Shown: positions 14,712-64,000 of the stretch, in pieces | How positions within the stretch are numbered: the stretch's first letter is position 1 | How the letters are laid out: every line of letters begins with the position of its first letter | NCBI GenBank assembly: GCA_964016885.1 | Contig: OZ024741.1 | Span: forward strand, 238,328,001-238,392,000 | From: Eledone cirrhosa | Lineage: Eukaryota | Length of the DNA: 64,000 bases | Direction: 5' to 3' | Position numbers and translations under genes: made by a program | Notes under the pieces: model-generated | Databases searched by the model: none | The model's input: only the letters and a program-made list of their open reading frames with translations | What the model was told of the DNA's origin: nothing

Positions 14712-14712
<1 letters not shown>

Positions 14713-17940: not shown

Positions 17941-17944
<4 letters not shown>

Positions 17945-18015: not shown

Positions 18016-18019
<4 letters not shown>

Positions 18020-31493: not shown

Positions 31494-31504
31494 TATATAT
31501 ATAT

Positions 31505-31685
31505 AATTTTCAACTTTTGGCACAAGGCCAGCAATTATCCCAGTGTATTACTGGTACTTTATTTTATCGACCCCGTAAGGATGAAAGGCAAAGTTAACCT
31601 CGGCGGGATTTGAACTCAGTCCGTAAAGGGACATAACTATGCGTCAAAGCATGGCACCCGACCCTCTACCGATACTGCCAATCCA
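31505..31685 (-). mobile_element. tRNA-derived SINE, second family
   Basis: Matches 12913-13099. Confidence 0.85.
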
Positions 31686-36089: not shown

Positions 36090-38471
36090 CTGAGGAACTG
36101 GTGGTAATCTTCTGGGTGTTGTTGAGAATTTCCATTCATTGGTTAACTGTTCCATCTCTGGATAATATGAACTTTTAGGGTTTATTGACTGAAGATTTCT
36201 AGCAAATATATCGTCTGCATTTCTGGTTATTGCAACAGGATTGTTGGTATGATACAGTATTTGTCTCATCTCAGTCGGAGATAGGAATTTTGGATTATCT
36301 GTTGTTGTAGGTGAGTTATTGGTGTGATTAATACATCTGAAAACACACAGTGTTATTGACACTACAATAGCCACAGATATTATTACAGCTGCTGCTACAA
36401 TGATAATTATCCAAGTCATATTGAGATTGTTACCAGTCTGTAAGTGGACAGCAGTTAACATTGGAGATGTATCATTACTAACAAACAGTGTTAGTATGAT
36501 AGCAGTTGTTACTGATTGAACTGGAGTACCACCATCTTTCACTATAAACTGTAGGTCATATGTTCCTGCATCATTTTGGTAAACTGTCCGAGAGAAAGAT
36601 AAGACACCAGTATGAGAGTTGACTGTAAACAGGTTTTTATCATTAGATCTCAGTATTCCATATGTGAGGAAAGCATTGTTTCCAGTGTCTTTGTCAGAGG
36701 CTTTCAGAATTGTGATGTCTTTCTTACTGTGTGGATCATAGTGGACATCTAGATTGTAAGGGTCATTAATAGGAAAGGTAAAATAGGGAGCATTATCATT
36801 TTTATCTAGAATCTCAATAAGAATATTGGCAGTGTTATTCAGAGAAGGTGTTCCATTATCTTTGACTAAAATTTGGAAGTTATAGATGTCTTTCACTTCC
36901 CGATCTATTGATTGTGATGTAGAAATAAATCCATATTTTGTAAGTTGGAAAGGAATGTTATCATTGTTGTTATCATTGATGATAGAATATATAAGTAGAC
37001 CTCCATCTCCAAGATCAGGGTCTGTAGCATTGATGAAGCCAATAGGGAAGTCAACTTTCTGGTTTTCATAGGTGAGGAATTGGAATGTATCTTTGGTAAA
37101 ATGTGGCTGTACATCATTGACATCAGTTACTTTGACAGAGAATTGTTTCTTAGTCTTTAACTGAGGTGATCCCATGTCATGACATACAATAGATACAACA
37201 TAGTGGTCTATAATTTCTCTATCAAGAGGTTCTTTCACCAATATTTTATATTCCTTGGAATCCATATTAGAAAGTTGAAACTTTTTATGGTAAATATTAC
37301 ATTTAATTTGTCCATTAGGTCCACTATCAGTATCAATGACCATAACATAAGCTATAAAACTTCCAATTTTACTTGCTTCTGAAATAGCTGTAGAGGTCTC
37401 CGTTAAAGGTGCAACAAAATCTATATTTATAGTAGGGGCATTATTTTGATTGCTTATTACATTAATAATTAACATTGCTGTAGAACTTAATGAAGGAATA
37501 CCACCATCTCTGGCTTCAATATATAATTTATTTTGTTGCATATTTTTGTAAAAGTTCTCCTTTAGGAAAATCTCTCCATTTGACTTTAGTTTGAATCTTT
37601 TTCTCACATAAGAATTTGTTTTTTGGTAAAAGTTATAGGCAATATCTCCATTTTGACCAGAATCTTTGTCTGTAGCTGATAAAACAAATACAGGAGAAGA
37701 TAGGTGATGTGTATCACTGATGGTGATATTGTATGTTTGTTGAGAAAATTTTGGTTGATTATCATTGACATCTGTAACAGATATTTCTATGTTAAGAATT
37801 CCTTGTTTTGGTGGTGAACCTCCATCTTTAGCCACCAACTGTAACATATAAGTGTCCTTTTCTTCTCTGTCTAACACTCCTGCTAAGGCTATTTTAAGTA
37901 GATTTCTTCCATCAAATCCTTTAAACATAGACAGTGAGAATTTCTTACTTTTATCTTTGAGTTTATATGTGATGTTAGAATTGAAAACACCAATGTCTTT
38001 ATCAACAGCATTTGGTATTGACACTGTCGAACCTTTTCCATCTCTTTCACTAAACTCTATTTTTATTTGATCTTTTGGAAACTCTGGCTGGTGGTTATTA
38101 ATATCTTCTATAACTATTCTTATTTTCAATATCTTTAGAAATGTTTCTTCTTTCCTCACTGCTACTTTAACAATTCTGAAACATTCTTTCTTGTAAGTAC
38201 AAAGTGTTTCAGCATCCAGTGTTTGTGTAGTGTATAGTTTTCCTGTGTTGGTGACATTGAATAAATGAGAACCACTTGACACTGTCCTTTGTAGTTGTGT
38301 AAATGTAATGTGTTGTTGTGTAAGAGAGTGTGTTAAGTTAGAATCAACAGCAATGTCTCCTATATATGTGTGAGGACTGTCTTCTTCATTGACATGGTAA
38401 GTAATATCCATGGACACAACAGGTGACAGCATTGTATATACAAGACACAGTAGTGGGATATTCCTTGTCAT
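36090..38471 (-). CDS. PCDH: Protocadherin B, large coding exon (794 codons)
   Basis: ORF 36084..38471 has the same domain layout. Donor CAG|GTATAA. Acceptor TTTCAG| puts the exon start at 38508. Confidence 0.95.
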
Positions 38472-42786: not shown

Positions 42787-42866
42787 TTATACAGGTTCTA
42801 GATAGGTTTCTTGTTCTTGTCCACTCTTCACTGTTGGAGGTATGTTTGGTCGATAGTTGCCATATT
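42787..42866 (-). CDS. PCDH: Protocadherin C, last coding exon (EYGNYRPNIPPTVKSGQEQETYLEPV*); spliced protein 879 aa
   Basis: TTTTACAG|AA acceptor; TAA at 42787-42789. Confidence 0.88.
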
Positions 42867-43216
42867 CTGTAAAATATATAAATATTAAAATGATATAGTT
42901 TTATTTTTCTGTTTTATTAGGGAGGGAAGAGGAGTGCCCACAAGCATTTTTAAGGTTCTCTGATATTGATTAAAAGGAGAGAAGTTATCCTCAAACCAGA
43001 GACCTGATTTGAATGTTTGCAAAAATGTGGACTTTGCTAAATGTGCCCAAGGGCCAAGTAGGGATATTAAGCTGGGTAGGAGATTAAGTACCAATTTGAG
43101 ACAGAAAAAGAGAAACAGACCAATTGATGAGGCTTGTTTGACATATTTAATGTTAGTTTCTATTCTAAATTAATTCAATATTTTTGTAAAATGTTTTATG
43201 CTTTGTGGAAAATATA

Positions 43217-43400
43217 ATAATTGTTTCTACTTTAGGCACAAGGCCAGCAATTACCCAGTGCATTACTGGTACTTTATATTATTGACCCCGTAAGGATGAA
43301 AGGCAAAGTCAACCTCGGCAGGATTTGAACTCAGATCGTAAAGGGACGTAACTATGCTGGAAAGCATGGCGTCCGACCCTCTACCGATACTGCCAATCCA
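43217..43400 (-). mobile_element. tRNA-derived SINE, second family, in the last intron of gene C
   Basis: Matches 12913-13099. Confidence 0.85.
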
Positions 43401-43535
43401 TATAATAATATTGTGCATTACATGTTGAAAAACTATTATATTTATAATAATGAATATATTTTATTTTCATTCAGTTCAGATTAATATTATTTTTTTATAA
43501 CTTCCATTAGAATATCTTGATTATTCTGTAATTAC

Positions 43536-43695
43536 CTGATGTTCCATATGTCTGATGTGTAATATCTCCTTCACTCCATCCACTGTTACGTTCTTTCTGA
43601 GAAGGTAAAGTATTATTCAAGTTGTTTGATGCCATAGTATTATCATTATAACATTTTTGTTCAGTTGAATTCTCTGACACATCTTTATTGTAATG
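43536..43695 (-). CDS. PCDH: Protocadherin C, cytoplasmic exon 2 (160 nt, HYNKDVSENS...RNSGWSEGDITHQTYGTS)
   Basis: CTGACAG|CAT acceptor and CAG|GTAATT donor; translated by hand with no stops. Confidence 0.88.
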
Positions 43696-46600
43696 CTGTC
43701 AGAAAAAGATAAAAAGAAAAATTAAAGTTTAACGTGCTAATTATATACAATTGATGTATTACATATGCAATGGAATAGTGAAACAAACAATATTGGAATG
43801 ACAGTTCAATGTTAGCTGAATGACTATCTCTCTTTATATATATATATAGTAACATAGGTTTTACCATCCTAGTATTCTTTGAATATGAGAATATATTTGA
43901 ATAAAATATTGGACCAATTATTTTATGGCTTGGTGACTTTTCTAATATCCCTTATAACAAGGTAAAATAGAATAGTATTTTTTTCTTCTTATGTTCATTG
44001 TTGTTTCTAAAAAGCAACAACTGTGCTGATAATCAACTATTATAATATGGTTTCTATATTTATAACTCTTAAAATTTACATACACAAACACACTTTTAGC
44101 AGAAAAATAATATTTTATGTATGTTTTTATTAAAGATAAATCTAAGAAGTTTGGTTGCAAGTCCTGTAGCCACGAAAGAAGTGCATCTGTTGCTGTAGTG
44201 ATAAGAACTCTGGGAAAGGATTTTCCATATCACATTCAAAGGCAATGGCTGTGGTAAAAGTATCATAAAATCTTATGACTTTTTACATGTTTTATTTACA
44301 AACCGATTACAAAAGTTGAGTTGACATTCCATTTAAAAAGGAACAAACAAATTAAGAGTTAAGAAGTAAAGAAAGGCACTGTGCCTGGCTGAATGAGGCT
44401 GAAGTGAAACTTTACTGTTACATGATGGCAAATGTTGACTTCTCGGAGTCCAAGGCAGCAACTGTTTAGTGTAAACAAAAGAAGTGGGAAAATCTTTGTT
44501 TGGGCGGAAATTGATATATATCCATATGCGGCTCACGATTGATCTAACATAACCAAATCATGCAAGTAGCTCCGCTATACACTCATAGACACAATGCATT
44601 TCGTGTCAAAATGTCTTGGATTCTAATGCTACATTTTCCCCAGTAAATAGTTATTTTGACTAGGTTATGCATACATTTAATCCTGTATGGCATTTGTACA
44701 TATATGTTGAACATTTATATAATCATATCCTAGAAATAAATGATTAAAATATCATTCTTATCTTATCATTTCCACATGTCAGTAACAAAATACACCAGAG
44801 CGTTTCTTTCATACAAACCATTAATCTATCAAAACACAATTTTCCTTGTTTGTATGATTGTTCATATATCTGGTATTCCTAGTATATGTGGCATACCAAC
44901 CCAGGCTCCAAAAATTAAATATGTTTGATGCTATTGCTGCCACCATTGATGGTGAGAGCTCAATAGTACATCGGAATTATTTCATGAGAGAAGACTAAAC
45001 ACAATGAGTAAAATAAATGTGTAATGTGATGTGTAACATGAAATTTGCTGTTAGCATATATCAGTAAAATGGGATGAAATCTTCAGTCCTAATAATGAAA
45101 AAAATTCATTTGCTGTTTATTATGGAATTCAAAGATAGGAAGTATATGGGTATGATAAACTAGGAGGTGAATATAAAGAATGGATTTGAACAGAAGTAGA
45201 GTGATGGTGGAATAGATGGAAGATTAAATAGCAGTGCAATTTAGATGAGATTGAATGTTTTCAATTAGTAAACTTTTCTTAATTTCATGGAAAGATTTTA
45301 TTTCTGTGTTAAATTTTGATTTGTAGTAAAGAAAGGTTGTGCACTTCTCTGACTATGGGAATTGAAACTAGTAGCAGTGCATTTTGGATTTTGTAGAGCA
45401 GTAGCTCAGGACTAAAGTGTTTGATGTCCCCAAAACATTTAGCCAAATCTTTGCTATGTTGTTAAGATTATCAAGTCCCTAGAAAAGGTTAACATTGAGT
45501 GAGTTTTAGCATGTGTACTGAAAGAGTTACATTATGTTGGAAGATTTTGTTTGGAGTTATGAAGTTCTTTCAAATAATTGTTATAGTCTGAGGATACATT
45601 GGTTGGTGCTTGAAGGAAACAGTTAAGTTGATGACAAAATATGACAAAGAAGTGCCACTGATATTAAGATTGAAAACATTTGATTTTAATGGTGTAAGCA
45701 ATTATATGTCTATCTCAATGGAATAAAGATGAATGATGAGGGTTGATGTTATTTTTTCTTTTCTTTTCATCAAGAAGCATGACACTTTGAATCCTCCTCT
45801 TGAAAAATTACTTAATCAATTTTGGCATTTAAAACTTCTATACTACAGTTACTTTTCTCCCTTTTTTTTTGTTTTTGTTAACTTTCACTCAAGTAAATGT
45901 GATTAGATAAATACAGACGTGCTTCATTTTCTGCCCGTGGTGAGTGCAAGTGAATAGGTATACATACATGACACTTCCCCATAAAGCTCGATATTTCATC
46001 TGCTTAACCATTGTTATTTCATATTGATAGTATATTAAGAATAGAGATTACCTCTAAAAATATTTGGAGCAACCGCCATAAACAATCTGACAAAGATATT
46101 TGCTACAACTTCAGAATTGTAGTGGTCCAAACTTATTTTGTGGTAAAAATTGCTTCTAAATAAAATACCTTTCTTTGTATAATTAACTTAGCTTCACATT
46201 TGTAATACTGTACAAAATAATACCTATTTATATATCTGTATAATCAAGAAATGTACAGAATCACAACAAATTATTCTTGCTTAAATTGCTGTTTTATCTG
46301 TACTTCATGCTACCTTTAAAGATTATTACCCTGATTATATATTGGATGATTATTCACTAGAAACATGTTCACTTACAATTTTTCAGACTTAAACCACCAA
46401 ACTCTTATATTGTTGCAATCACTCTTTTATTATTAAAATGATAGTCACAGTGAATCTGGAACTTTTGTATGTGCTCTGTTTCAACTCACATATAACAATT
46501 GCAGTTATCTTTTTGCTTTCCAAAATAGAAGTGATGTTTGTTTTTATGGAATCTCAACAAATCACTGCACCAAACCTGCCAATCCAGCTATTGTCTCACT

Positions 46601-46895
46601 GTTTAATCCTAAGTATTTCATCCAAGGAATCCAAGTGTCCATGGTTATGTTAATTATAGTACTTCAATCTGTCCATACTGAGAAGTACCACTACAAAATA
46701 TTTTCGATATTTGTTCATATCCATCATATATACATTTAGAATAAAAAACATTTTTTAAACTTCAAATCAATGTAATGGTCCCCTGGTAGATATTTAGTTT
46801 CATATGATATTAAGTTCAATTATATCAATTCTAATGATTTACTATTTTATAATGAATATATATATATTTAGTTGCTTATAGATGATGATACATAC

Positions 46896-49295
46896 CTGAG
46901 GAACTGGTGGTAATCTTCTCGGTGTTGTTGAGAATTTCCATTCATTGGTTAACTGTTCCATCTCTGGATAATATGGACTTTTAGGGCTTATTGACTGAAG
47001 ATTTCTAGCAAACATATCGTCTGCATTTCTGGTTATTGCAACAGGATTGTTGGTATGATACAGTATTTGTCTCATCTCAGTCGGAGATAGGAATTTTGGA
47101 TTATCTGTTGTTGTAGGTGAGTTATTGGTGTGATTAATACATCTGAAAACACACAGTGTTATTGACACTACAATAGCCACAGATATTATTACAGCTGCTG
47201 CTACAATGATAATTACCCAAGTCATATTGAGGTCGTTACCAGACTGTAAGTGGACAGCATTCAACATTGGAGATGTATCATTACTAACAAACAGTGTTAG
47301 TATGATAACAGTTGTTGCTGATTGAACTGGAGTGCCACCATCTTTCACTATAAACTGTAGGTCATATGTTCCTGCATCATTTTGGTAAACTGTCCGAGAG
47401 AAAGATAAGACACCAGTATGGGAGTTGACTGTAAACAGGTTTTTATCATTAGATCTCAGTATTCCATATGTGAGGAAAGCATTGTTTCCAGTGTCTTTGT
47501 CAGAGGCTTTCAGAATTGTGATGTCTTTCTTACTGTGTGGATCATAGTGGACATCTAGATTGTAAGGGTCATTAATAGGAAAGGTAAAATAGGGAGCATT
47601 ATCATTTTTATCTAGAATCTCAATAAGAATATTGGCAGTGTTATTCAGAGAAGGTGTTCCATTATCTTTGACTAAAATCTGGAATTTATAGATGTCTTTC
47701 ACTTCCCGATCTATTGATTGTGATGTAGAAATAAATCCATATTTTGTAAGTTGGAAAGGAATGTTATCATTGTTGTTATCATTGATGATAGAATATGTAA
47801 GTTGACCTCCATCTTCAAGATCAGGGTCTGTAGCATTGATGAAGCCAATAGGGAAGTCAACTTTCTGGTTTTCATAGGTGAGGAATTGGAATGTATCTTT
47901 GGTAAAATGTGGCTGTACATCATTAACATCAGTTACTTTGACAGAGAATTGTTTCTTAGTCTTTAACTGAGGTGATCCCATGTCATGACATACAATAGAT
48001 ACAACATAGTGATCTATAGTTTCTCTATCAAGAGGTTCTTTCACCAATATTTTATATTCTTTAGAACCCATATTAGAAAGTTGAAACATTTTATGGTGAA
48101 TATTACATTTAATTTGTCCATTAGGTCCACTATCAGTGTCAATGACCATAACATAAGCTATAAAACTCCCTATTACACTTGCTTCTGAAATAGCAGTAGA
48201 GGTTTCTGTTAAAGGAGACACAAAATCTATATTTATAGTAGGGGCATTATTTTGATTGCTAATTACATTAATATTTAATATTGCTGTGGAACTTAATGAA
48301 GGAATCCCCCCATCCCTGGCTTCAATGTATAATTGGTATTTACTTTCTATATTTCTGAAGAAGTTATCATTAATAAAAATTTCTCCAGTTTTGGAATTTA
48401 ATTTTAAATGTTTTCTAGCATATTTATTTGTATTTCTATGTAAATAGTAAGTAATATTTCCATTTTGACCAGAATCTAAATCTGTAGCTGATAAAACAAA
48501 CATGGGAGAAGATATGTGATGTGTATCACTGATGGTGATATTGTATATTTGTTGGGTAAAAGTAGGTCTGTTATCATTGACATCTATAACGGATATTTCT
48601 ATGTTTAGAATTCCTTCTTTTGGAGGTGAACCTCCATCTTTAGCCACCAACTCTAACATGTAAGTGTCTTTTAATTCTCTGTCTAACTTATTTTCAAGCA
48701 TTATTTCTAATATGTTTATTCCATCAGATTCTTTAAATATGGACAGTGAGAACTTTTTACTTTTATCTTTGAGTTTATATATGATGTTAGAATTGATAAC
48801 ACCAATGTCTTTATCAACAGCATTTGGTATTGATTTTGTTGATCCCTTTCCCTCCCTTTCACCAAACTGTATTTGTAATTGATTTCTTGGAAATTCTGGT
48901 TGGTGGTCGTTGATATCTTGTATAATTATTTCAATCTTTAATATCTTCAGAAATGTTTCTGACTTCCTCACAGCTACTTTAACAACTCTGGAACATTCCT
49001 TGTTATATGTACACAGTAACTCAGCATCCAGTGTCTGTGTAGTGTATAGTTTTCCTGTGTTGGTGATATTAAATAAGTGAGAACCACTTGACACTGTCCT
49101 TTGTAGTTGTGTAAATGTAATGAGAGTGTGTTGTTGATGTGTGAGAGAGTGTGTTAAGTTAGAATCAACAGCAATATCTCCTATATAGGTGTGAGGACTG
49201 TCTTCTTCATTGACATGGTAGGTAATATCTATGGACACAATGGAATACATCAATCCAAAGAGAAGGTAAAATTGTAAGGTGTTGATTATAATCAT
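46896..49295 (-). CDS. PCDH: Protocadherin C, large coding exon (800 codons)
   Basis: ORF 46842..49295. Donor CAG|GTATGT. Two candidate acceptors upstream of the ATG (exon start 49328 or 49334). Confidence 0.95.
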
Positions 49296-51211
49296 TGTTG
49301 TAATTCATTATTATTCATGAATATATATCTAAACCTATAAAGAAAGTAAAGCAAATTGATTTAATCACACAATCATTTGTAAATGTTTAAATTTATTCCT
49401 TCTTTAAACCTAGTATATCACATTTAAAACCTAAGCAATAATGCATTGGAGACTTCTCTAACATTCTCAAATAATGGGTTAATTCAATAAATCAAAAATT
49501 GTTAGATAAAATTTGGTGGGCTATCACCTTTGCTGACAACAAAGATTTTTTTGTCTGTGCCTAGGCCAGATTGTCCCATGTTTTTTGTATATATGTGTTT
49601 CTCTGTGGAGTGAGATGTAGGTCATGAATGTTGTTAAAGTGTATAAAAAAAATACTCTGCTTGTATGAATATGTGATGTCAGTTGTATAAAGAACAGCAG
49701 AGTTCTCAAAATGGATTGAACCTATTGAAGTGGGAGTCTACAGAAGAAATGTTTCAAAATGAAGACTGATCCGAAGATGTTGAAACAAACAAAGAAGTTG
49801 GCAAAGAACTGTGATTAATGGTATGGTGCTATGCCAGAATGAACCCATCCAACTCTTGCCAGCATGATAAAACACACAAGTATGATTGATGATAATAGTA
49901 ATAGTGATAAATATTGGGAAGCATAGTATTAACATTTAGCTTTTTTCCCAACTGTTATACTCATATTAAGTCTTATAGCACTCTTCCACTTTCTTCATTA
50001 GTGTCTCATCTATTTCTCACCCAATCTCCTATCAATGTATAAAATTATGAATGTTAAGGCAAAGGTGTATTGCTTACAGTGTTAAATTTAAATGTAATGC
50101 CATTTGTGTACTAAGGGATGGCATCACATTAGATCTACCTATATGTAATCCCAATTTGCCATCACCCCTTTTTATTGCTAGCCATCACTCTCTTTCTTCT
50201 CTCCCCGATCACTCACTATTGATTTCTATCAGTCCTATTATTAATTATTTTAGTATAGTCGAAATGTGATTATTTAATTTGAAAGATCAGTTTAAAATTT
50301 GGATGTTACATTACTGATGTATGCTAGAAATGAAACAAAATTCTTCAGTAAGCACCCCCTATAAAAGTATGAATGTTAAGACAAAGGTGTATTGCTTACA
50401 GTGTTAAATTTAAATTTAGCCATAGAATTTATGGAAAAGAACGACTGTGCATCCTCTAAGAAATTTGTTGAGAGCAGCATTAGCTCATGGAAAAAAGAAT
50501 GAAGCCCAACTGCAGAAAATTCCAAATGATAAGCAATCTATAAAGGGATGAGTTTTTGTAACAACATTGTATGTAAAATTACAAACAAATATATACAAGC
50601 TAAATCAAGATGGCGGGAATTACTTGGAGATGATGAAAAAGGTTTTGATGGTTTTTAAGTGATAAACTCATTTTGTGAAAAATGAATGTTTTTTAACCTA
50701 CCCTATGGATAATAATATATAACAGAGATTATCCTTACCTCTGGAAATTAATATATATTTATATTAGTGAAATTAATTAAAAAAATATGTACCTAAGGGT
50801 CAAAACCAACATTTAAAATCTGTTTAATGTGTAACTTAATGCTGAATGAAATTATATTATATTTATCTATGCAGATGATACAATATGTTTTGGTGAATGG
50901 ACAATATTTCCTGTTTAAACTGACATAGAAAAATATATTATGCTATGGAATATAACATTATATATCTAAATACAGTCAACTGAAATCAGTAATTGAATAA
51001 TGGTAGTTGTTAAAAATATCTTCCTTCTTAAACTGACTATATACACTACTGCAGTAACAATTGCCTATGGTAATGGCTAAATCTTTATAAGTATCTCTAT
51101 TTCTGACTCTATATGCATTATAATGAATGACACTTTAGCTATTATCTATTATCGTACTTCAATATCAAACATATAGTATCAAATATAAAATTGCAATGTA
51201 AAATGACTTAC

Positions 51212-51350
51212 CTACATTATTTAATCCTTTGTTTGTGTCTCTTACAGAAGACATTTATTCTGACGTAGTGTTCCAGTGTAACTGCTGCTGTAGTAGTGTG
51301 ACAATGGCAGTATCTTGATGATGTAGATTTGTGAGTCATAGTGGGAGCCA
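51212..51350 (-). promoter_or_regulatory. Non-coding first exon/promoter of protocadherin C
   Basis: Donor TAG|GTAAGT; GTAGTGTTCCAGTGTAACTGCTGCTGTAGTAGT; TGAGTCA at 51332-51338. Confidence 0.72.
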
Positions 51351-52132
51351 ACTACACACTAGAGGATTTCATTTATTTGTGCATATTGTATACATTAAGC
51401 TTAATTTATTTAAAACAATTACTAAAACATTTAATAAAGAATTTTGAAATTAGTAATTCAAATTTATTTTAAACTACAGAAAACTATATGTGACTAATAA
51501 ATTATCTTTTGTATATGTATACACATTGACACACGGAGCATATAAAACATTAACCTTAATGGCAATTTCATAACTCTAACCTTAATGGCAATTTCATACA
51601 AATTGCAATGAATTGCATTATGAAATATTCATTAAAATTATATTATTGTTTCTATTCCTTTTTTCTGTTCCTTCATTATTTATTCATAATTTAAAACTTT
51701 CAATTAGTATTTTTTGTATTTAAAATCGTATATTATTTGTAAATATTATATAGATAGTGGCAGGAACTGCATAATTTTAAAGTAAATGTTTTCCAATAGT
51801 TTTGTTCCTATATTTTCTAATCTATGATTGTATGAGGCTGAAATTCTATTTCTTGTGAGTATCAGTAATATACTGGGCAGAATTCAATATATTATAACCC
51901 TGGAAAATTTTGACCTGCTGTATGATCAAAATAAAACAATCATGGTTTTTGCAAATATTTTGAATTTCAGTTATCTAATTTGTTTACTCTTAAGTTTAGA
52001 TTTAATGGAAATATTTGCAAATGCATATTTATAAATATATAAATGTGGATTAATTATTTGTTGGTATGGAATTGCTGGTTAATTTAATTTTATTCTAAAT
52101 CAACCATAATGTTCTATTTCTATTACATTATT

Positions 52133-52345
52133 TATTCAAATCCCGCCGAGGTTAACTTTGCCTTTCATCCTTACGGGGTCGATAAAATAAAGTACCAGTA
52201 ATGTACTGGGTAATTGCTGGCCTTGTGCCAAAAGTAGAAACAATTATTTATTCAAATCCCGCTGAGGTTAACTTTGCCTTTCATCCTTACGGGGGTCGAT
52301 AAAATAAAGTACCAGTAATGCACTGGTTAATTGCTGGCCTTGTGC
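52133..52345 (+). mobile_element. Two tandem 5'-truncated SINE copies in the 3'UTR region of gene D
   Basis: TTCAAATCCCGC(C/T)GAGGTTAAC...GTAGAAACAATTA occurs twice head-to-tail. Confidence 0.85.
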
Positions 52346-52436
52346 CAAACGTAGAAACAATTATTTATGTTAAAATAAAGAAAAAATATAATAATCTTCA
52401 GGACAAATAATTGTGGTTGTGCTGGCTTTGAGTATA

Positions 52437-52525
52437 CTATTTTTTATACACAGGTTCTAGATATGTATCTTGTTCATGTTCACCTTTTGGTATTGGTGGT
52501 ATGTTTGGTGTGTAGTTGCCGTATT
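52437..52525 (-). CDS. PCDH: Protocadherin D, last coding exon (EYGNYTPNIPPIPKGEHEQDTYLEPVYKK*); spliced protein 878 aa
   Basis: CTTCCAG|AA acceptor; TAG at 52437-52439. Confidence 0.86.
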
Positions 52526-52802
52526 CTGGAAGATAAAGAAACATTATAAATAGTATGAATAATGGATAGTTTTCTCAAAAGAAAATGCCTGCTTCTGAAT
52601 TAATATTACATGGGTATTAAATTAGTTTTTATGAAACATTTAGCTGCTTATATTGAAACACACCTTTTAAATAGTTTACATGTGTATTTTATATAATCCC
52701 TTTTGTATAACAATTAAAAAGCTTCAACATAATGAATATAGAATTGTATCAGTTAGATTATAAGGAATTTATATTCACTGCTATTGATATTTGGCAAATT
52801 AC

Positions 52803-52950
52803 CTGATATCTTATGCGTGATATCACCTTCACTCCATCCATGGTTGCGATCTCTTTGAGATGGTAATGTATCATTTAGGTTGTTTGATGTCCCAATACTG
52901 CTATTATCCTCTTGCTCACGAGACCCATCTGAAATCTGTTTATCATAGAT
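52803..52950 (-). CDS. PCDH: Protocadherin D, cytoplasmic exon 2 (148 nt, IYDKQISDGS...RNHGWSEGDITHKIS)
   Basis: GACAG|ATC acceptor and CAG|GTAATT donor; in frame. Confidence 0.86.
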
Positions 52951-54694
52951 CTGTCATTGAAATAATAAGGATTTAGATACATATTTGAGAGGTTAACATA
53001 CACACTGTAATATTATTATTATAGGCATGCTAAAATAGTTGCTTTGGGTAACAGATTCTCCAAAACCATTAGGAAGTTTGGAATTATTTAATATGAGTAC
53101 TTTGATAGAAGTGAATTAAATATCTAAACTAATATAAGACTTGAATTCCAGTGATTTTGTTTTATAATGTTTGTCAAACTTGACCATGCATACCTATAAT
53201 AGTTATGGAGTCCAATGAATAATAAGGTTGGATTCACCTACACTAAGTGACTGCCTAGTTGAAGATCACACTGAGCACTATATAAAAGTGTAGCAAATTG
53301 ATATACACTAAATATTTGGATAACAAATTCTGATTTTGAATTAGTTGAATTTATGTTTTTCAGTAATTACAGCTTTGCAAAAAATGTATTTATGTATTTG
53401 CAGTTTTCACATTATGTTGAAATTGTTTCACACAGTTTTAAAATTAGAAATTCTGAAATGGTAGAATGTTTCGTTTTGATAGCATAATCAAATTGGTATT
53501 TGCACATAATGTGTGTATTATTGTCTACAAGTTAAAAATATCAAGATGGACATAAAAACCAAATAAGTTTCCAGAGGACATTAAAAATATGATTGTACAA
53601 CTTAGAGCCTAAAAGAATGTAAGGTCATACAATTATATATCATCGTCATAGTTTAACTTCTGTTTTCCTTACTAGCAAAGGTTGAGCATGTCATTACAGA
53701 TTGGTTAGTGCTTAAGCAGAAACTCTGGCCTCCAGGTGGGCCAACGGCCCAACATGTGACTGGAAAGTTGTCATATCTTTGACATAGCTGAAAGGTCTTT
53801 GTGACCCTTTGTTTGGCAGATTTTCAATGGCTGGATGTACTTCCTATATACTGGGTGTGTTTATCATGTAGAGGACCAACACTAAAGAGGTTGTCATGTC
53901 TCTATCCCAACTGAAGTGTCTTTGCAAGTTTTCTACAGTTGGAAAACCTTCCTACCCCAGTCACTTTACACCCACCCACACATAGTGAGGTTCATTTACT
54001 AGTCGACTATAATGATTATAATTGGTTGGTTAGCCACATGATCAAACGGAAAAAAACTCATTGTGAGGCATTACAGATGAGGTAAAATATAGGACAGCCA
54101 TTGTGTTATGTTACAAGATATTCAAATGAGTACACACCCTAGAACTGTGCAAGCAAGCTACTTTCACTGTATCCCTATTTCAGAAGAAAATGGTGGTTTC
54201 CTTCACAAATAAGGTAAACATATTTGGCATGAAAGCTACAGGAGGAACGATTATCTGTTAATAATGAAATACTTCAACATTTTCTGATGAAAGATGGCTG
54301 GTTAGAACTTTAAAAGAAGCATACTGATCCAAAGATGTTATTTTTGTTATGACCTGGGGAGGGGGGTATCATTTCTTAGACAGGTTAATAACATATAGAC
54401 TAAAGCATGATCATCTCTGAATATATTTGGCTTGATGAAATGGAACTTTGAGAAAAAGCTCCAATATTCAAACTATGCATGAGTTGTTTACATTTAACTC
54501 TAACATATAAATTTCATTTTCTCCAGAATATATTATATTTTTACACAATTCAACAATTTAGTGAATACTAACAGCTTTAAAGTTGAAACATTTCACAAAA
54601 CACTGGGTAACCTATTTTATTTGCAGGTAGATTATTGAGCTTCAGTTGCATCAATGAGATTTGGAATTCAAGAAAGTTTTAAATTGTTTTGTAT

Positions 54695-55065
54695 CTCATG
54701 AGCACCTTTGTGAATTCCATGTCTAACACCCGTGGATATATTTACAAAATTAGAAAACAGTACAGCTTCCAGGACTATCGGAAACATTTTTTCATGCTCA
54801 GAGTTGATGAAGCATGAAACAAACTGCTTGCATCAGTTGTTAGCTATTGGGACACTGCATCCTTCAAAACTTCTATGCTTCCTGAAATTCGCCAACATTA
54901 CACTTGATATCCCCTCTCCACACACACACATGCATGTGTGTGTGTATGTCATAAATCATACACTGTTCACTTTCCTGGCATTTGTACATTATTTTATGTA
55001 CTATACATGTACTTTTGATGAGTTGTAGTGTACCTGAGCACTGTACACAATCATTTTCATTATAT
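54695..55065 (+). mobile_element. CR1 3' fragment
   Basis: Matches the 13.6-14.0 kb sequence, including TTGTAGTG(T/C)ACCTGAGCACTGTACAC. Confidence 0.82.
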
Positions 55066-55554
55066 TATATGCTTTGGGGGATGGTTAAAGAATTTACTTC
55101 ACAACCATAAGGTCTGAAGTTCGATCCTGTGTGGTATTTTGAACAAATGCATTTTACCATAGTTTTAGGCTGACCCAAGACTTTTAAGTAAAATTGGGTT
55201 GATGGAAACTTCAGGTGGACAGCATTTGTAATGCAAAATGTCAGCATTGTCATACATAAGGACACAGTGACTCTACCTGAGGAATACATCTGTGGAATAA
55301 ACTTAACTACTTGCACAATAATGAGTAAGCAGCTTAGGTGAATAAACAGTTGAAATACTTTTGTCAAAGCTTAATATCTAATTATAGTTATAAGAAATAA
55401 AAGTGTGAGAACTGTGAGCATCCTATGAGATAAAATATCATACTTTAGTAGATTTTAATAAAGTTTAATAAATAACATAAATTGAAATAAATACATACAC
55501 ATAAACGAAGAAAGAAAAACAATACATTTGAAAAACGAAATCTTGTATAGGTAC

Positions 55555-57954
55555 CTGGGGAACAGGTGGCAGCCTCCTGGGTGTTGTTGAGAATTTCCAT
55601 TCATTGGTTAACTCTTCCATCTCTGGATAATATGAACTTTTAGGGTTTATTGACTGAAGATTTCTAGCAAATATATCGTCTGCATTTCTGGTTATTGCAA
55701 CAGGATTGTTGGTGTGATACAGTATTTGTCTCATCTCAGTCGGAGATAGGAATTTTGGATTATCTGCTGTTGTAGGTGAGTTATTGGTGTGATTAATACA
55801 TCTGAAAACACACAGTGTTATTGACACTACAATAGCCACAGATATTATTACAGCTGCTGCTACAATGATAATTACCCAAGTCATATTGAGATTGTTACCA
55901 GTCTGTAAGTGGACAGCATTCAACATTGGAGATGTATCATTACTAACAAACAGTGTTAGTATGATAGCAGTTGTTGCTGATTGAACTGGTGTACCACCAT
56001 CTTTCACTATAAACTGTAGGTCATATGTTCCTGCATCATTTTGGTAAACTGCCCGAGAGAAAGATAAGACACCAGTATGGGAGTTGACTGTAAACAGGTT
56101 TTTATCATTAGATCTCAGTATTCCATATGTGAGGAAAGCATTGTTTCCAGTGTCTTTGTCAGAGGCTTTCAGAATTGTGATGTCTTTCTTACTGTGTGGA
56201 TCATAGTGGACATCTAGATTGTAAGGGTCATTAATAGGAAAGGTAAAATAGGGAGCATTATCATTTTTATCTAGAATCTCAATAACAATATTGGCAGTGT
56301 TATTCAGAGAAGGTGTTCCATTATCTTTGACTAAAATCTGGAATTTATAGATGTCTTTCACTTCCCGATCTATTGATTGTGATGTAGAAATAAATCCATA
56401 TTTTGTAAGTTGGAAAGGAATGTTATCATTGTTGTTATCATTGATGATAGAATATGTAAGTTGACCTCCATCTTCAAGATCAGGGTCTGTAGCATTGATG
56501 AAGCCAATAGGGAAGTCAACTTTCTGGTTTTCATAGGTGAGGAATTGGAATGTATCTTTGGTAAAATGTGGTTGTACATCATTAACATCAGTTACTTTGA
56601 CAGAAAATTGTTTCTTAGTCTTTAACTGAGGTGATCCCATGTCATGACATACAATAGATACAACATAGTGATCAATAGTTTCCCTATCAAGAGGTTCTTT
56701 CACCAATATTTTATATTCTTTAGAACCCATATTAGAAAGTTGAAACATTTTATGGTGAATATTACATTTAATTTGTCCATTAGGTCCACTATCAGTGTCA
56801 ATGACCATAACATAAGCTATAAAACTCCCAATTTTACTTGCTTCTGAAATAGCAGTAGAGGTCTCTGTTAAAGGTGATAAAAAATCTATATTTATATTTG
56901 GAGCATTATTTTGATTGTTAATTACATTAATTATTAACATTGTTGTAGAACTTAATGAAGGAATGCCACTATCCTTAGCTTCAATACACAATTGGTATTT
57001 ATTCTCTATATTTTTAAAGAAATCTTCATTAGCGAAAATTTCTCCACTTTTAGGATTTATGTTGAAATATTTTCTAGCATGTTTATTTGTATTTCTGTGT
57101 AAATAGTAAGTAATATTTCTATTCTGACCAGAATCTAAATCTGTAGCTGATAAAACAATTACAGGAGAAGATATATGGTGTGTGTCACTGATAGTAACAT
57201 TATATGACTTTTTATTAAATATTGGTGGGTTATCATTGGTATCTCTAACAGATATTTCTATGCTTAGAATACCTTCTTTTGGTGGCGAACCTCCATCTTT
57301 AGCTACCAACTGTAGCATATAAGTGTCTTTTAATTCTCTGTCTAACATTTCATTTAAAGTTATTTTAAGTAGTTTTATTCCACCAAATCTTTTAGACATG
57401 GATAATAAAAATTTCTTACTTTTATCTTTGAGTTTATATGTGACATTTGAATTGAGAACACCAATGTCTTTATCAACAGCATTTGGTACAGATTTTGTTG
57501 AGCCTTTTACATCTGTTTCATCATATTGTATTTTTAAATGATTTCTTGGAAATTCTGGTGCTTGGTCATTAATATCTTTTATTAATATTTTAATTTTCAA
57601 TATCTTTATAAATGTTTCTGATATTCTTATTGCGACTTTAACAACTCTGGAACATTCCTTGTTATATGTACACAGTAACTCAGCATCCAGTGTCTGTGTA
57701 GTGTATAGTTTTCCTGTGTTGGTGACATTGAATAAGTGAGAACCACTTGACACTGTCCTTTGTAGTTGTGTAAATGTAATGAGAGTGTGTTGTTGATGTG
57801 TAAGAGAGTGTGTTAAGTTAGAATCAACAGCAATGTCTCCTATATAGGTGTGAGGACTGTCTTCTTCATTGACATGATATGTAATGTCTATGGATACAAC
57901 AGAATATATCAATCCATAGAGAAGGTAAAATTGTAAGGTGTTGATTATAATCAT
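55555..57954 (-). CDS. PCDH: Protocadherin D, large coding exon (800 codons)
   Basis: ORF 55465..57954. Donor CAG|GTACCT at the homologous position. Acceptor TTTTCAG| at 58172, displaced by a SINE in the 5'UTR. Confidence 0.93.
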
Positions 57955-57982
57955 TGTTCCTTTTCATTATTATAACTCATAA

Positions 57983-58145
57983 TGGATTGGCAGTATCAGC
58001 TTTGCAACAAAGAGTTACGGCCCTTTATGGTCTGAGTTCAAATCCCGCAGAGGTTAACTTTGCCTTTCATCCTTACAGGGTCGATAAAATAAGGTACCAG
58101 TAATACATTGGGATAATTGCTGGCCTTGTGCCAAAAGTAGAAACA
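57983..58145 (+). mobile_element. SINE inserted in the 5'UTR of protocadherin D, antisense to the mRNA
   Basis: 17-bp TSD ATTATTATAACTCATAA at 57966-57982 and 58146-58162. Confidence 0.9.
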
Positions 58146-59934
58146 ATTATTATAACTCATAAATCCATATATCTGAAAAAATAGAGGGCAGAAATTATAC
58201 TCAGTTTGATGAACCAGCCTGACTGCTTGCAATAAAGTGGACTAAAGGCACTCAAGTGCCGAGGGATTCAGTTGAAGGATTGTTACGCTTGTTGTTACAG
58301 TATTTAAATTCAGATCACAACTAGAGACTTGGAAAATCTACAAATACTGATGATGTAGAAAGCTCATACAAAAAATATTAAAAAACAACCATAGATTGAA
58401 CATTTCTCTTACTTTGAGACTATATTATCACTTATTTTAAAATATGATAATTACATTCTATTTTCTGTTTGATGTTGTATTGCTTTAAAAATAATTCAGA
58501 AATAATCACTAGTTCTCCAGAATTGTATTTTTGCAGTCTTCCAAAACTATTCCGAGTTATCTCCCCCTCTCAAGATTGCATATTTCATTGAATCTTTTTG
58601 TTTAGGTAATTAATGTATGTAGAAGTTTCTATGGAAGATGACACGATTTTGTTCTATATTATATTGAAATGTTTAAACTGTCTTAACATGGTGGAGATTA
58701 GTTTCTGTTGAAATTCAATGTTTTTAATCTATGTCGAAAGGAATTCTGTTATAAGATAAATTGTATCTATGATATATAAAAATAAACATCTATGTTCATG
58801 ATGTTAAGTTTAGTTTGAGTAGATCTAATCATCTTTGGTCATGAACATATAACAGACGTAGTCCTATAACAGATGCCTGTTGATATTAAAGTCAGTTACT
58901 CACTTTCATATCAACAGGCATCTTTAGGATCAACTAGAGTTGATACTCAAATACTGAGCATGAATATATGGCTATTAATTGTGATTATTTTGGTGTATAT
59001 GCGTATTTTGTTAAGAGTAGGTCAGTTAATGTTTTTGCTTGATGTTTAAATATTTTTCTTGATGTTTGTATGTTTGAACTTATAAACATGTGATATGTGT
59101 TGTTGTGGACTTTGATGCATCATAATCCCCATATGTTCATGTTTCTATATGTTGTGTATTTTTAATATTTGGTAATATGAAGTGTGTGATTTGTGAAATT
59201 ACTAGACATGTTTGACATAATACTTGATAGAGATATTTGTAGTTGATTGGAAACTGTGTATTTATTTAAATAAAATGTTGACTGAATATTGGTTAGCTCT
59301 GTGCATATGTATTTAATGATCATTATAATTCGGTTTTTATGTTCACTATATCTGTGAAAATACAGTTCAGAAGCTTTACAATATATAGGTTTTTGTTTAC
59401 AAATCAAATTTGTTCAGGCCTAAATGAGTAGCAGTAATGAGATAGTAATTACTGATTATTTAATATCTCTTGGGATTCATATATATTGTAGAAAACTGAT
59501 CAATCATCATCATCATCATTTAACAGCCATCTTCCACGCTAGAATAGGTAGGACGGGCTATCCGTTTGTGAGAGATCAGGTTGGCAGACTGAGATTCGCT
59601 CACACAGAACTGATTTTGGTTTGGTTTCTACGGCAGGATGCCCTTACTAACACCAACCACATTTACAGTGTGTGCTGGGTGCTTTTTATCATGACACCTA
59701 CACGACCACTATATAGTGTGGGCTGGGCTCTTTTGTCATGACTTCAGTGGGGATCAATATATATATAAATCCTCATTACTTGATCAAAATGGGGACAGAA
59801 GGTTTTAATTTAACCCCAGATGAAAATATAAAAAAAATCAAATTTATTTATATTAGTGGGCAAAAGAAAAGTAATTGCAATTATATCATGATCATCATCC
59901 TTTTACATCTATTTTTCCGAGCGTCTAAAGTATA

Positions 59935-60215
59935 TCTGAAGCCTAGGGCCTCACTAGATTGGTGCTTATCCTGGTTCCCTTGGTGTTTAGTGACTGAGCA
60001 TAGAAGACTTCCCCCTGGACAGATTTAAACCCCCAGCTATGGCTAGTATACATTTTCAGCTGAGTACACTTGAGCAATGTGAAATGAATTGTCTTGCTCA
60101 AGAACACAACACATAACCTGGTTCTTAATGTTGTGTGTTTGATTCTTATCAAACACACAACATTATGACTGTAAGTCGAAAACCCTAAACACAGGGCCAC
60201 ACACCTTCACCATGC
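59935..60215 (-). mobile_element. Diverged CORE-like tRNA SINE
   Basis: Reverse complement contains GTTGTGTTCTTGAGCAAGACAATTCATTTCACATTGCTC, as at 6.3 kb. Confidence 0.7.
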
Positions 60216-60748
60216 TTACATAATAATAAATATAAAAAATATGATGAATTAAATTTCAAGGAAATGCTAATGTCTTTTTAGTTTTTATAAAGGTAAATTT
60301 ATGAGAAGTAGAGTTAATTGGTTGATGAGTAATATAGTATATAATTATTCTATATCTTGAAACTTTGAATAATATTCAAGCAGTACTTGTAATTAATAGA
60401 CTAAATGTAAAGAAATGATGATAATAATAATGTCCCCAGTTGAAAAAAAAATGTTACATTAAGAAGCAGAGCAATAAATATGAAATTATATTCTTAAATA
60501 CAATAAATTGACAGATCAATATTTTCATCATGGTTGTTGTTAAATATATCTTCCTTCCCAAAGTAATTATACTACTGTAGTAGTAGTAATTGTTTGTGGT
60601 AATGGCTACATCATTCTCTGGCTATCTATTTTCTAGTTTGTATATATTATCATGCATACACTTTCATTTATTATCTATTTATATAAATCGCTATTAAATA
60701 TATATTACCAAAATATTCAATACAAAATTGCAATGTAATGTGACTTAC

Positions 60749-60890
60749 CTATATTGTTTAATCCTTTGTTTGTGTCTCTTACAGAAGACATTTATTCTGA
60801 CGTAGTGTTCCAGTGTAACTGCTGCTGTAGTTGTGTGACAATAGCAGTATCTTGATGATGTAGTTTTGTGAGTCATAGTGGGAGCCAACT
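60749..60890 (-). promoter_or_regulatory. Non-coding first exon/promoter of protocadherin D
   Basis: Donor TAG|GTAAGT; nearly identical to the 51.2 kb copy; TGAGTCA at 60869-60875. Confidence 0.72.
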
Positions 60891-61719
60891 ACACTCTAGA
60901 GGATTTCATTTATTTGTGCATATTGTGTTCATTAAACTTAATTTATTTTACACATTTACTAAAATATTTAATAAGGAATTTTGTAATAAGTATTTCTGAT
61001 CTATATTAAACTACATTAAAATGTATATAAGTAATAATTATTCCTTGCATATGGATGCTTATAGCACACTAACATTTTTGCACACACACATGTACATATT
61101 CATTCACTAAGTATTGTAGTATATAAATCCTTAATTTCGAAACTCAGTGGCAATTTCATAAGATATATTGCAGGGGATTAAACTATAAAATATTTATTTA
61201 GATTATAAATTATAGATTTTCTGCAATTTCTTTGGTTATTTTATTATTTATTCATAATTTCAAAGAAAATCTAAAATATTAACACATATTTCAATACTTA
61301 AAAGAATAGTTTAGTAATTGTTAGAAATGGTAGATTGTTGTTGGACTAAAATGTTTCCAATATTGTTGTTTTTATATTCTATTCATTACATATTATATGA
61401 GTTTCCCTTCAACTATTGAAACCAGTTAGATACTAATGATAATCATATACATTAAATGACTATTTTTGGCGATTTTTGAACTAGTGTATGGTCAAAATAA
61501 ACAACCGATTATATTTTTGAATAATTTAATTTGTCTACTCTTTAGTTATAAATTTAATGAAAATATTTGCAAATATATATATTTTTAATATATTTATTTG
61601 AATTAATTATGTTTGTTGAATATATTTTGTTAATACAAAAGAATATTCTTATTGAATATCATTCTTGGTAGTAACATTTAAAAAAAATGTAAATCTCCAA
61701 AACAAATAATTGTAGTCTA

Positions 61720-61808
61720 TTATTTTTTATATACTGGTTCTAAATATGTGTCTTGTTCATGTTCGCCTTTAGGTGTTGGTGGTATATTTGGTGTGTAGTT
61801 ACTGTAGT
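61720..61808 (-). CDS. PCDH: Protocadherin E, last coding exon (DYSNYTPNIPPTPKGEHEQDTYLEPVYKK*)
   Basis: TTTTCCCCCCAG|AC acceptor; TAA at 61720-61722. Confidence 0.85.
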
Positions 61809-61950
61809 CTGGGGGGAAAAAATAGAGAAATACATTATAAATATTATTGAAAAAGGCTACTTCTTTTGAAATGTCTTTTAAAAAAAAAAAATGTTTTCTA
61901 AATTAATTTTACACCACTGTAGTATTTTGTAGTATTTTTTTATTTTTTTT

Positions 61951-62140
61951 AGGGCGGTGGATTGGCAGTATCAGTAGAGAGCCGGACGCCATGCTTTCCA
62001 GCATAGTTACGTCCCTTTACGGTCTGAGTTCAAATCCCGTCGAGGTTAACTTTGCCTTTCATCCTTACGGGGTCGAAAAAATAAAGTACCAGTAATGCAC
62101 TGAGTAATTGCTGGCCTTGTGCCTAAAGTAGAAACAATTA
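61951..62140 (+). mobile_element. Full-length tRNA-derived SINE, second family
   Basis: GGGCGGTGGATTGGCAG head, B box GAGTTCAAATCC, shared core and tail. Confidence 0.88.
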
Positions 62141-62719
62141 TTTTTTTTATTTTTATTTTTTCAGCTTCATGTAACTTTTACCTGATTAAAATAGTTTACA
62201 CTTTAACTCTTAACATCCTATAATGATTTAGCAGAAAAGTACAGCTTTATTAATTCAAATGTGTATAATATCTTCACTAGAGGACAGATCATTGTGAAAA
62301 TTTGCATTATCAAAATGAAGATGTAAGTATTTAATTTGGTGGAATCAGTTATGCTAAAAATAGTGCTGCATATGCAAGATTGTTAATTGATTCTAAACAT
62401 CTTGTAATGATTTCACAGAATACTGTGTCTAAAAAGAAATCTGTTAATTCAAATGTTTATAGTGTCTTTATTAGTGGACAGATCATTGAATATTTATATT
62501 AAAGACTTCAATTTTTAATGTGATGCAGTAATAGTGATATTTTGTACATTTCAAGACTGTCTGTTATTGTAGTTTCATGTAGCACAGGGTATAAGTTAAG
62601 TATTTTATGTAATACATGTATATTACAATAACAAGTGTTACTGTTATAAATATGATAGAACTGTGTCAGTATGTTTATAAAACATCAATATCAACTATTG
62701 TTAATATTTAGTAAATTAC

Positions 62720-62867
62720 CTGATGTCTGGTGTGTAATATCTCCTTCACTCCATCCACGTTTATGCTCTCTCTGAGATGGTAATGTATCACTGAGGTTGT
62801 TTGATGTCACAGTACTGCTGGTGTCATCTTGCTCACACGATCCATCTGAAAACTGCTTATTATAGAT
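62720..62867 (-). CDS. PCDH: Protocadherin E (large exon expected beyond the window end), cytoplasmic exon 2 (148 nt)
   Basis: GGCAG|ATC acceptor and CAG|GTAATT donor; IYNKQFSDGS...KRGWSEGDITHQTS lies within ORF 62691..62909. Confidence 0.85.
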
Positions 62868-64000
62868 CTGCCAGGAAATAACATGCACATTTGAGAGTTT
62901 AGAAGACACAACATTATGTATTTATAAGAAAACTAGATTGACAATCATTCAACTGTAAAATTGAAGAGATTTATCTTTAATACATTCAAATGCATATATA
63001 TGTTTCTTTATTTCATTTTCTGATCTATAGTTGTTAAATTTACATTATTTACAGAGATCTCATCTCCATACTCTATACTTCAACTTCTCTCCATACTCAT
63101 ATCTATACTTCAACCCATATACATACTTTTATAGTTCAACTAATCTCAATATTCTATACTTCAAATCATCTCTATATACTTCATAGATGACTTGATCAAA
63201 CACTTTTGAATTAACTTAGATACATGAGGTTGTATTTCTTTGAGATGCGATATCTTATATTGAGGTAAATTTCTTGTACTTAGAATTAATTTCAGTGTTT
63301 TTTGTGATATTTGTAGTGTTGCTTAGATTGATCAAATACACTTAGTCAACATTAATGAAGCGGCCAAAAATGAAGGACTTTCCCACCATGGCTGTCCTGT
63401 CATCTTCATATATTAAGGTGGGGGTGTGTTTGACTACATTATTTAAAAAAAGACACATAAATATATCTGATCTGGTAAAATTAAGTATATAACAAAATCT
63501 ACAGTTAGGTTTATTTTAAAGAAAATTTTATTCAATGATAGAAAGATCTTCCAGAAGTTTGACATCTATAGGATTAGACACTTAAAATGGGACATTACAG
63601 GAGAATATAAAGAAAAGAAGAAAGATGTCTTAACAAAAATAGTGCACATAAAAATAATGATTTTCAAGGTAAATCAAGCTCAAACTGACCACACTAGCTA
63701 CAATTACATAAATCAATTACAGTAAATCAATAACTAGTAAATATAATAAACCTGATGTTAGTATGGATGTTATTCAACTTCTGAGATAATGATCATGCTT
63801 ATAATATTTCAGATTTGAGTATACAGAATACTTCTAAGGGGATGATGTATATAAAATCGGAAAATGTTCATTTTCTTTTTTAACTTTACTGATTTTGAAT
63901 TACTATTTTTTAAAGATCTATGAAATTTTGTTAAGATAAGACAGGAATACATCTAAAATAAATTTTACTGATATTATTAAAACATATCAAAACAATATAA

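Follow-up and report, generated by a model that had tools for sequence, protein, structure and literature searches.

Gene models and array organisation

The stretch of Eledone cirrhosa DNA analysed here, called the window below, comprises 64 kb of contig OZ024741.1 (assembly GCA_964016885.1, positions 238,328,001 to 238,392,000) and lies in an array of protocadherin genes. It is AT-rich, with a GC (guanine plus cytosine) content of 26-44%, and its minus strand carries four long open frames, the first exons of genes A, B, C and D, which are 90-92% identical to one another. About 450 kb of sequence was examined around the window, all coordinates being given in window numbering, with negative values and values above 64000 lying outside it. 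The scan revealed 39 protocadherin heads, every one on the minus strand, between ~-208 and +245 kb, so that the locus is a tandem array of many head-to-tail paralogues in a single orientation. The gene at issue is D, for which the original prediction, made from the letters of the window, had proposed a chimeric origin. Gene D is better described, with a probability of about 0.8, as an ordinary, rather diverged member of the array at the border between two tail lineages, and its likeness to its neighbours C and E is likely to reflect array-wide gene conversion and a shared tail type rather than a recent offset duplication. The features of the three genes, with positions inside exons counted in nucleotides (nt), are the following.

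55555-57954, minus strand: exon 1 of gene D, 800 codons encoding a signal peptide, six cadherin repeats, a predicted membrane span and a juxtamembrane part
56906-57954, minus strand: variable portion of exon 1 in D, comprising the signal peptide and extracellular cadherin (EC) repeats EC1-EC3
55555-56905, minus strand: homogenised part of D exon 1, ~nt 1050-2400, from EC4 through the membrane span to the juxtamembrane part (domain labels approximate)
52803-52950, minus strand: exon 2 of gene D, 148 nt, AG/GT borders
52437-52525, minus strand: exon 3 of gene D, 89 nt to the stop, ending YLEPVYKK
52135-52368, no strand assigned: two tandem copies of a dispersed ~118-nt repeat in the D 3' flank
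50949-52063, minus strand: conserved 3' flank of D with type II tail homology, likely a 3' untranslated region (UTR)
46896-49295, minus strand: exon 1 of gene C, an open frame with a head of the kind found in D to H (MIIINTL signal peptide, YYLHRNTNK)
43536-43695, minus strand: exon 2 of gene C, 160 nt, type I tail as in A and B
42787-42866, minus strand: exon 3 of gene C, 80 nt, QEQETYLEPV and then the stop, type I
64083-66479, minus strand: exon 1 of gene E, just outside the window
62720-62867, minus strand: exon 2 of gene E, 148 nt
61720-61808, minus strand: exon 3 of gene E, 89 nt, ending YLEPVYKK
60477-61618, minus strand: conserved 3' flank of E with type II tail homology

The genes are predicted to follow a three-exon plan, in which exon 1 of ~2400 nt runs from the ATG to a PQ/GT donor and is followed by an exon 2 of 148-160 nt and an exon 3 of 80-89 nt that reaches the stop. 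AG and GT stand at every exon border of genes A to H, and the joined coding sequences are open over 872-879 amino acids (aa), that of D having 878 aa and no internal stop; annotated octopod relatives of 852-884 aa agree with these models. An exon 2 and an exon 3 of its own, to which the head is predicted to be spliced, lie downstream of each of A to H, and last exons have been located behind 23 of the 39 heads. The array does not have the vertebrate type of locus, in which variable first exons share constant exons, the tail exons being gene-specific and different between genes.

Membership of the protocadherin family, recognised by an N-terminal Cadherin_2 domain and tandem cadherin repeats after it, is found for both C and D. 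Exon 1 of D matches PF08266 Cadherin_2 (E = 1e-8) and PF00028 Cadherin in five stretches (E = 3e-70), as does exon 1 of C (E = 2e-9, and five stretches with E = 5e-69), while the hydrophobic run WVIIIVAAAVIISVAIVVSITLCVF, seen by inspection of the translation, is a candidate membrane span. The best protein matches are all octopod protocadherins, from Octopus vulgaris (83-84% identity), Argonauta hians (77-79%) and O. sinensis (73%), making cephalopod protocadherins the closest relatives. Contigs from DNA sequencing runs over 43400-61500 contain no exon-exon joints, the joints listed falling in the 118-nt dispersed repeat; run X5 behaves there as DNA of the same organism, and the contigs of runs X1 and X2 cover pieces of exon 1 only, at 95-99%, which possibly derive from a relative or from paralogues and have no bearing on expression.

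Near-identity and probable homogenisation of the EC4-to-membrane tract

The 3' ~1.3 kb of exon 1, from EC4 to the membrane, is 94-99% identical across the 39 heads compared, and pairs of genes range from 94 to 100%. Synonymous divergence (dS, calculated by the Nei-Gojobori method and averaged over 19 genes, with approximate domain bounds taken from Pfam positions) amounts to 0.60 in the signal peptide, 0.37 in EC2 and 0.53 in EC3, and to 0.19 in EC4, 0.055 in EC5, 0.070 in EC6, 0.019 in the membrane span and 0.12 in the juxtamembrane part, so that it is far lower in the tract than in EC2-EC3. Cross-species trees were built at protein level from the window genes and 21 octopod proteins. The tree of the tract (aa 450-760) groups paralogues by species, uniting window genes A to H with support of 97/89, all Argonauta proteins, including one of a distant subfamily, with 100/99, and O. 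vulgaris with O. bimaculoides with 98/95, and such grouping by species is a signature of concerted evolution. Paralogues of one species also resemble each other more closely than they do their presumed orthologues in another, and all of them share the substitutions particular to that species.

Shorter patches of identity occur upstream of the tract. E and A, separated by ~40 kb and three genes, are 98-99% identical at exon-1 nt 430-650 (25976-26196 in A) and 79-92% identical in the flanking segments, and F and B are 99% identical at nt 505-655; both are likely gene-conversion patches. The tract as a whole is likewise likely to be kept alike by repeated gene conversion, as the profile of divergence and the trees suggest.

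A second, short island of identity lies in EC1 at exon-1 nt 150-300 (57655-57805 in D), which is 97% identical in all 39 genes, including gene Z, otherwise 78% identical, and the distant blocks of genes that begin MTTYIG or MSGNII. The latter comprise 19 more protocadherin genes between -208000 and -34000, in two groups interleaved by signal peptide (MTTYIG... and MSGNII...). Compared with the window genes, they are 56-63% identical in EC2-EC4 and 94-98% identical in the EC5-to-membrane tract, and their tails lack the TYLEP ending.

Head and tail of gene D

The strings that had been taken as common to the heads of C and D are all present in both: each opens with MIIINTLQFYLL and holds ELLCTYNKECSRVVK and YYLHRNTNK. 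The head of E also begins MIIINTL, however, and the features are not exclusive to the trio of C, D and E, save ELLCTYNKECSRVVK, which is confined to C and D, as YYLHRNTN occurs in 17 of the 20 genes examined and the D 3' flank has 18 further matches. The description of the two first exons as near-identical holds for ~nt 1100-2300, where C and D are 97-100% identical, as is every other gene pair, and fails across nt 280-955, where identity is only 78-87%. Their dS of 0.50 in EC2 and 0.51 in EC3 equals the family mean, which argues that the C and D heads are not recent mutual copies; nucleotides exclusive to a pair in exon 1 number two for C-D and eight each for F-B and E-A.

Trees of successive head segments within the genome point the same way. 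Nucleotides -100 to 280 yield a polytomy of C, D, E and F at 93/96; nt 280-1050 join E to A at 95/93 (99/98 with 20 genes) and leave C, D, F and the pair of G and H without resolution; and the rest of exon 1 beyond nt 1050 gives a star tree. The variable head of D sits on a long end branch with no supported sister. The original prediction had expected separate trees to pair C with D by their heads and D with E by their tails, and the head clade is recovered in no segment tree, within the genome or across species. The case that it had named as refuting it, a head of E closer to D than that of C is, does not hold overall (D-E 90.0% vs D-C 92.5%), the lower D-E identity arising because E carries A-like EC2-EC3.

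Both D and E indeed have an exon 2 of 148 nt and close their last exon with YLEPVYKK. These features belong to the second of two tail types: in type I (A, B and C) exon 2 measures 157-160 nt and the last exon closes with QEQETYLEPV, and in type II (D, E, F, G and H) exon 2 measures 148 nt and the last exon closes with YLEP[VI]YK[KT]. The latter ending stands behind 18 genes in all, type II thus comprising D and at least 17 more, and the combination of head type and tail type seen in D is the commonest in the sub-array.

Non-coding homology had been described between ~51.0-52.5 and ~60.5-61.8 kb, covering the last exon, intergenic DNA and first exon. It is real for the exons and the 3' flank, where 50949-52063 matches 60477-61618 at 71.6% over 1181 columns (E = 7e-155), with two further matches between the D and E tails (52431-52556 with 61714-61847 and 52684-52965 with 62600-62881), and does not extend into the intergenic DNA. 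Neither 49296-50948 compared with 57955-60476 nor the first introns gave a match at E <= 0.01 other than one 16-nt chance word. Homology through a whole unit, as seen between the units of H and p110 further along the array (96.3% over 9.98 kb), is thus absent between the units of the proposed duplication.

The D 3' flank also matches 18 further places (E <= 1e-37), all on its own contig and strand and spaced like the genes, between E and ~+250 kb; in the rest of the 3.0-Gb genome it has no match, the only others being short, weak ones within this array region. Array-wide matching on one strand marks the flank as a shared tail or UTR-like region and not as a relic specific to E. Because the strong matches are confined to a single strand of the array and are spaced like its genes, a transposable element was ruled out for this flank. 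The dispersed repeat in the D flank explains part of the seeming likeness in non-coding DNA; an Rfam search with the D tail region, including one 118-nt copy of the repeat, gave no match.

Copies of this repeat (~118-190 nt) occur in both orientations at 6030-6141, 11624-11747, 12903-13100, 31497-31686, 43210-43400, 52135-52368, 58013-58151 and 62005-62146, and in DNA run X5 its summed contig depth exceeds 2 million, compared with 10-100 nearby. A ~90-nt element of the type II 3' flank (query 767-859) recurs near 41491 (G000:C2:238369491-238369586), downstream of the C stop, and behind at least eight genes of the distant blocks, and may be a conserved 3' UTR element.

The tail tree (exons 2-3 with flanks), from which gene Z was left out as a root because its exon 2 could be placed only weakly (tblastn E = 0.5-1.0), separates A, B and C from D, E, F, G and H at 100/100 and places D outside the group of E, F, G and H at 83/83. 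By the approximately unbiased (AU) test it rejects C+D (p = 3e-84) and does not reject D+E (p = 0.17), and the 3'-flank tree neither recovers nor rejects D+E (p = 0.18), so that the expected tail clade of D and E appears in no tail or 3'-flank tree. Identity between D and each of the other type II tails is 67-71% along 1.6 kb of 3' flank, whereas E reaches 72-75% with F, t164 and the H group (74-75% with the H group alone), and the E tail region is 71-74% identical to the tails of F, G and H over 1.4-1.8 kb. A hybrid would have its head closest to one neighbour and its tail closest to the other; the likenesses of D are instead shared with many genes.

Each gene carries its own exon 1, exon 2 and exon 3, and on this layout the following course of events can be proposed. 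Repeated gene conversion would keep the EC4-to-membrane tract identical, while EC2-EC3, the recognition surface by analogy with vertebrates, would escape conversion and diversify, and the tails and 3' flanks would mostly hold to their own lineage. Since every unit carries the near-identical tract, an occasional crossover or long conversion running through it could join a head to a foreign tail; this is seen clearly at G and, on the most parsimonious reading, in the C lineage as an old event, and it is not seen at D.

Discordant heads and tails in genes G, C and E

The clearest case of such an exchange is gene G, outside the window. When 90412-96500 is compared with 99449-105354, the G and H units agree at 90-95% from 90412 upward, a part that takes in the promoter region, exon 1 and the 79 nt of intron 1 that follow it. 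Below 90412 the remainder of intron 1, the 3' flank and exons 2-3 reach only 76-81%. The H-type block to which both belong contains seven heads (p144, p136, p128, truncated p118, p110, H and G) and six tails, and these comparisons mark G, which borders a block of units ~96% identical to one another, as a recent and clean hybrid of head and tail. The one-sided switch in G together with the surplus head is the pattern left by an offset tandem duplication with its breakpoint in or beside the tract. The mechanism put forward for gene D is therefore right in kind and operates in the array at G, and was assigned to the wrong gene. The truncated head of the block, at 118377-119639, retains a 421-aa open frame and tail exons at ~116.6 and ~115.9 kb and is probably a pseudogene.

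Discordance that is likely to be older is seen in C and E, which can be set beside the other two genes of the window.

24226-26625, minus strand: exon 1 of gene A, an open frame, with type I tail exons at 23217-23376 and 21135-21214
36090-38471, minus strand: exon 1 of gene B, an open frame, with type I tail exons at 30414-30570 and 29945-30024

Gene C joins a head of the D-H type to a tail of the A/B type, and E joins A/B-type EC2-EC3 to a tail of the D-H type. Across species, the variable head (aa 100-360) unites A, B and E with P0004, P0011, P0046 and P0056 (98/97), and the tail unites A, B and C with P0004, P0008 and P0033 (99/96). AU tests, for groups named after the trees had been seen, reject the type-I-tail genes as a clade in the head tree (p = 3e-5) and the genes with A/B/E-type heads as a clade in the tail tree (p = 8e-6). 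All four combinations of head and tail exist, so at least one exchange is needed. The C-like combination is also present in Argonauta hians P0008 and O. vulgaris P0033, and the E-like one in Argonauta P0011 and O. bimaculoides P0056, from which the discordance of C and E is likely to be old.

Which gene of the two is the recombinant can be approached by rooting. With the distant subfamily as root, both the A/B/E head type and the type I tail come out as derived, and the C-like combination is then the only one that, by parsimony, needs an exchange. Gene C may accordingly have arisen when a crossover or long conversion ending in the tract placed a D-H-type head and ~60-100 nt of its 5' flank on a tail of the A/B type, before the sampled octopods separated. 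The chances of this are about even, and it is compatible with, and would refine, the description of D as an ordinary member of a converted array. In its favour, the 5' flank, signal peptide and EC1-EC3 of C lie among the D-H-type heads, its exons 2-3 group with the type I tails (support of 100/100 for the genome alone and 99/96 with other species added), and heads of YYLHRNT type stand on type I tails in P0008 and P0033. Against it, the variable head of C is rejected as a clade with the heads of P0008 and P0033 together (AU p = 0.007; with P0033 alone p = 0.35), nt -100 to +300 do not rule out a tree that sets C apart from every type-II-tail gene (p = 0.42), the rooting relies on two outgroup proteins and a tail alignment of 78 columns, and E could be the recombinant instead. 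No breakpoint can be located in C, the 3' half of exon 1 being alike in all genes.

The original prediction had further pictured the tract as a hinge that pairs heads anew with tails. The G hybrid and the incongruence of the C-like and E-like genes speak for this idea, and gene D does not. In its widest form, in which the tract would be a built-in recombination hinge in ~39 genes that has repeatedly moved heads with their promoters onto foreign tails, recently at G and in at least one old exchange, that of the C-like or of the E-like genes, common to Argonauta and Octopus, the idea is tentative and rather doubtful.

Alternative explanations for gene D and for the tract

The chimera model holds that D stems from a duplicated unit reaching from the E tail through intergenic DNA to the C head, produced by unequal crossing-over in the tract. 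Several observations weigh against the description of D as an ordinary array member, and some of them also speak for this model. The types themselves are what it would give, with a C-like head on an E-like tail in D, a D-H head on a type I tail in C and a type II tail in E; ELLCTYNKECSRVVK is private to C and D among the 20 genes examined; the highest single 3'-flank identity of D is with E (71%); and the matches are collinear, at offsets of 8.7-9.9 kb. AU tests leave both expected clades unrejected, that of the C and D heads at p = 0.25-0.38 and that of the D and E tails at p = 0.07-0.18. The tail of D pairs with O. bimaculoides P0016 (87/91, not starred), and its variable head is rejected from the P0016 head group (p = 0.002), so the head and tail of D may differ in history, or conversion within the species may have altered part of the head. 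To the same side belong three points of method: gene conversion is deduced from the pattern of divergence and not directly observed, the splice pattern of the array genes is predicted from sequence alone, and the groups used in the AU tests of head/tail discordance, that of D with P0016 among them, were chosen with the trees in view.

The model is nonetheless very improbable, and a duplication running from the tail of E to the head of C is unsupported. The collinear pattern that joins the D and E units joins the D unit equally to those of F, G and H and to 14 more; the intergenic DNA and first introns of the proposed unit share no homology; C and D are no closer in EC2-EC3 than the family mean; neither clade is found in any tree; the E tail is nearer to the tails of F, G and H than to that of D; and the combination in D, as the majority type, needs no special origin. 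An old offset duplication may have given rise to D, and nothing specific supports one.

For the identity of the tract, purifying selection on the protein or RNA alone, acting in place of conversion, is a highly unlikely cause: dN/dS (the ratio of nonsynonymous to synonymous divergence) is low in all segments, 0.13-0.53, and the tract ends near the exon-intron border, as selection might lead one to expect, but dS drops 5- to 25-fold in the tract, and the closer likeness of paralogues within species and their common species-specific substitutions run contrary to it. Least credible of all is an artefact of assembly or polishing with collapsed paralogous reads. Repeats of 1.3 kb that are 97-99% identical do pose a problem for assembly, but the differences between copies, at 1-6% of sites, are gene-specific; the same pattern recurs in annotated proteins of three other octopod genomes; and contigs from an independent DNA run of the same organism show 0 differences from the unique flanks, the border between C exon 1 and its intron included.

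One further feature of the window stands apart from these genes. The interval 14100-18100 is GC-rich (43-44% compared with ~30% around it), with strong negative GC skew, and its open frames on both strands resemble retroelement remains; a 554-aa frame at -7572..-5911 is similar to them.

Comparison with known systems and significance

Hybrid genes of the Lepore and anti-Lepore type arise in globin clusters from unequal crossing-over in tandem arrays. Gene G resembles them in that its nearest relative changes inside the gene, on one side only, where a duplicated block ends, whereas D shows no such switch toward any single partner.

Comparable sub-arrays are present in other cephalopods such as Octopus bimaculoides, O. 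vulgaris and squids, the octopod proteins being 73-84% identical to D; the Eledone array comes from a different species from any of these protein matches, the best of which reaches 84%. Earlier work has put forward, in a general way, homogenisation of cephalopod protocadherin arrays by gene conversion, and the portions consulted of these accounts (PMC9068888, PMC6339937) are without a domain-resolved homogenised part, tail lineages or hybrid genes. In a partial search of the literature, no paper was found on concerted evolution of cephalopod protocadherins or on unequal crossing in octopus protocadherins. The specific claim about gene D adds nothing new.

In the clustered protocadherins of vertebrates, dS is highest in EC2-EC3 and lowest in EC5-EC6, a profile interpreted as the result of conversion sparing the specificity domains, according to the part consulted of PMC4978886, which cites Noonan et al. 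2004. The alpha, beta and gamma clusters thus have the same profile of dS by domain as the Eledone array, and differ from it in that the variable exons of alpha and gamma are spliced to shared constant exons, whereas the Eledone genes have exons 2 and 3 of their own. The octopod and vertebrate expansions are independent, as far as the consulted parts of the literature state. The same divergence profile in independent expansions would be a convergent evolutionary regime for a family of neuronal recognition proteins, and one that is directly measurable here.

Whole-protein trees of such arrays mix three histories, those of the variable head, the converted tract and the tail, and likeness between neighbours is therefore no evidence of recent duplication. 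If the reading of the tract as a hinge were true, octopods would shuffle in their DNA the pairings of head and tail that vertebrates shuffle by splicing.

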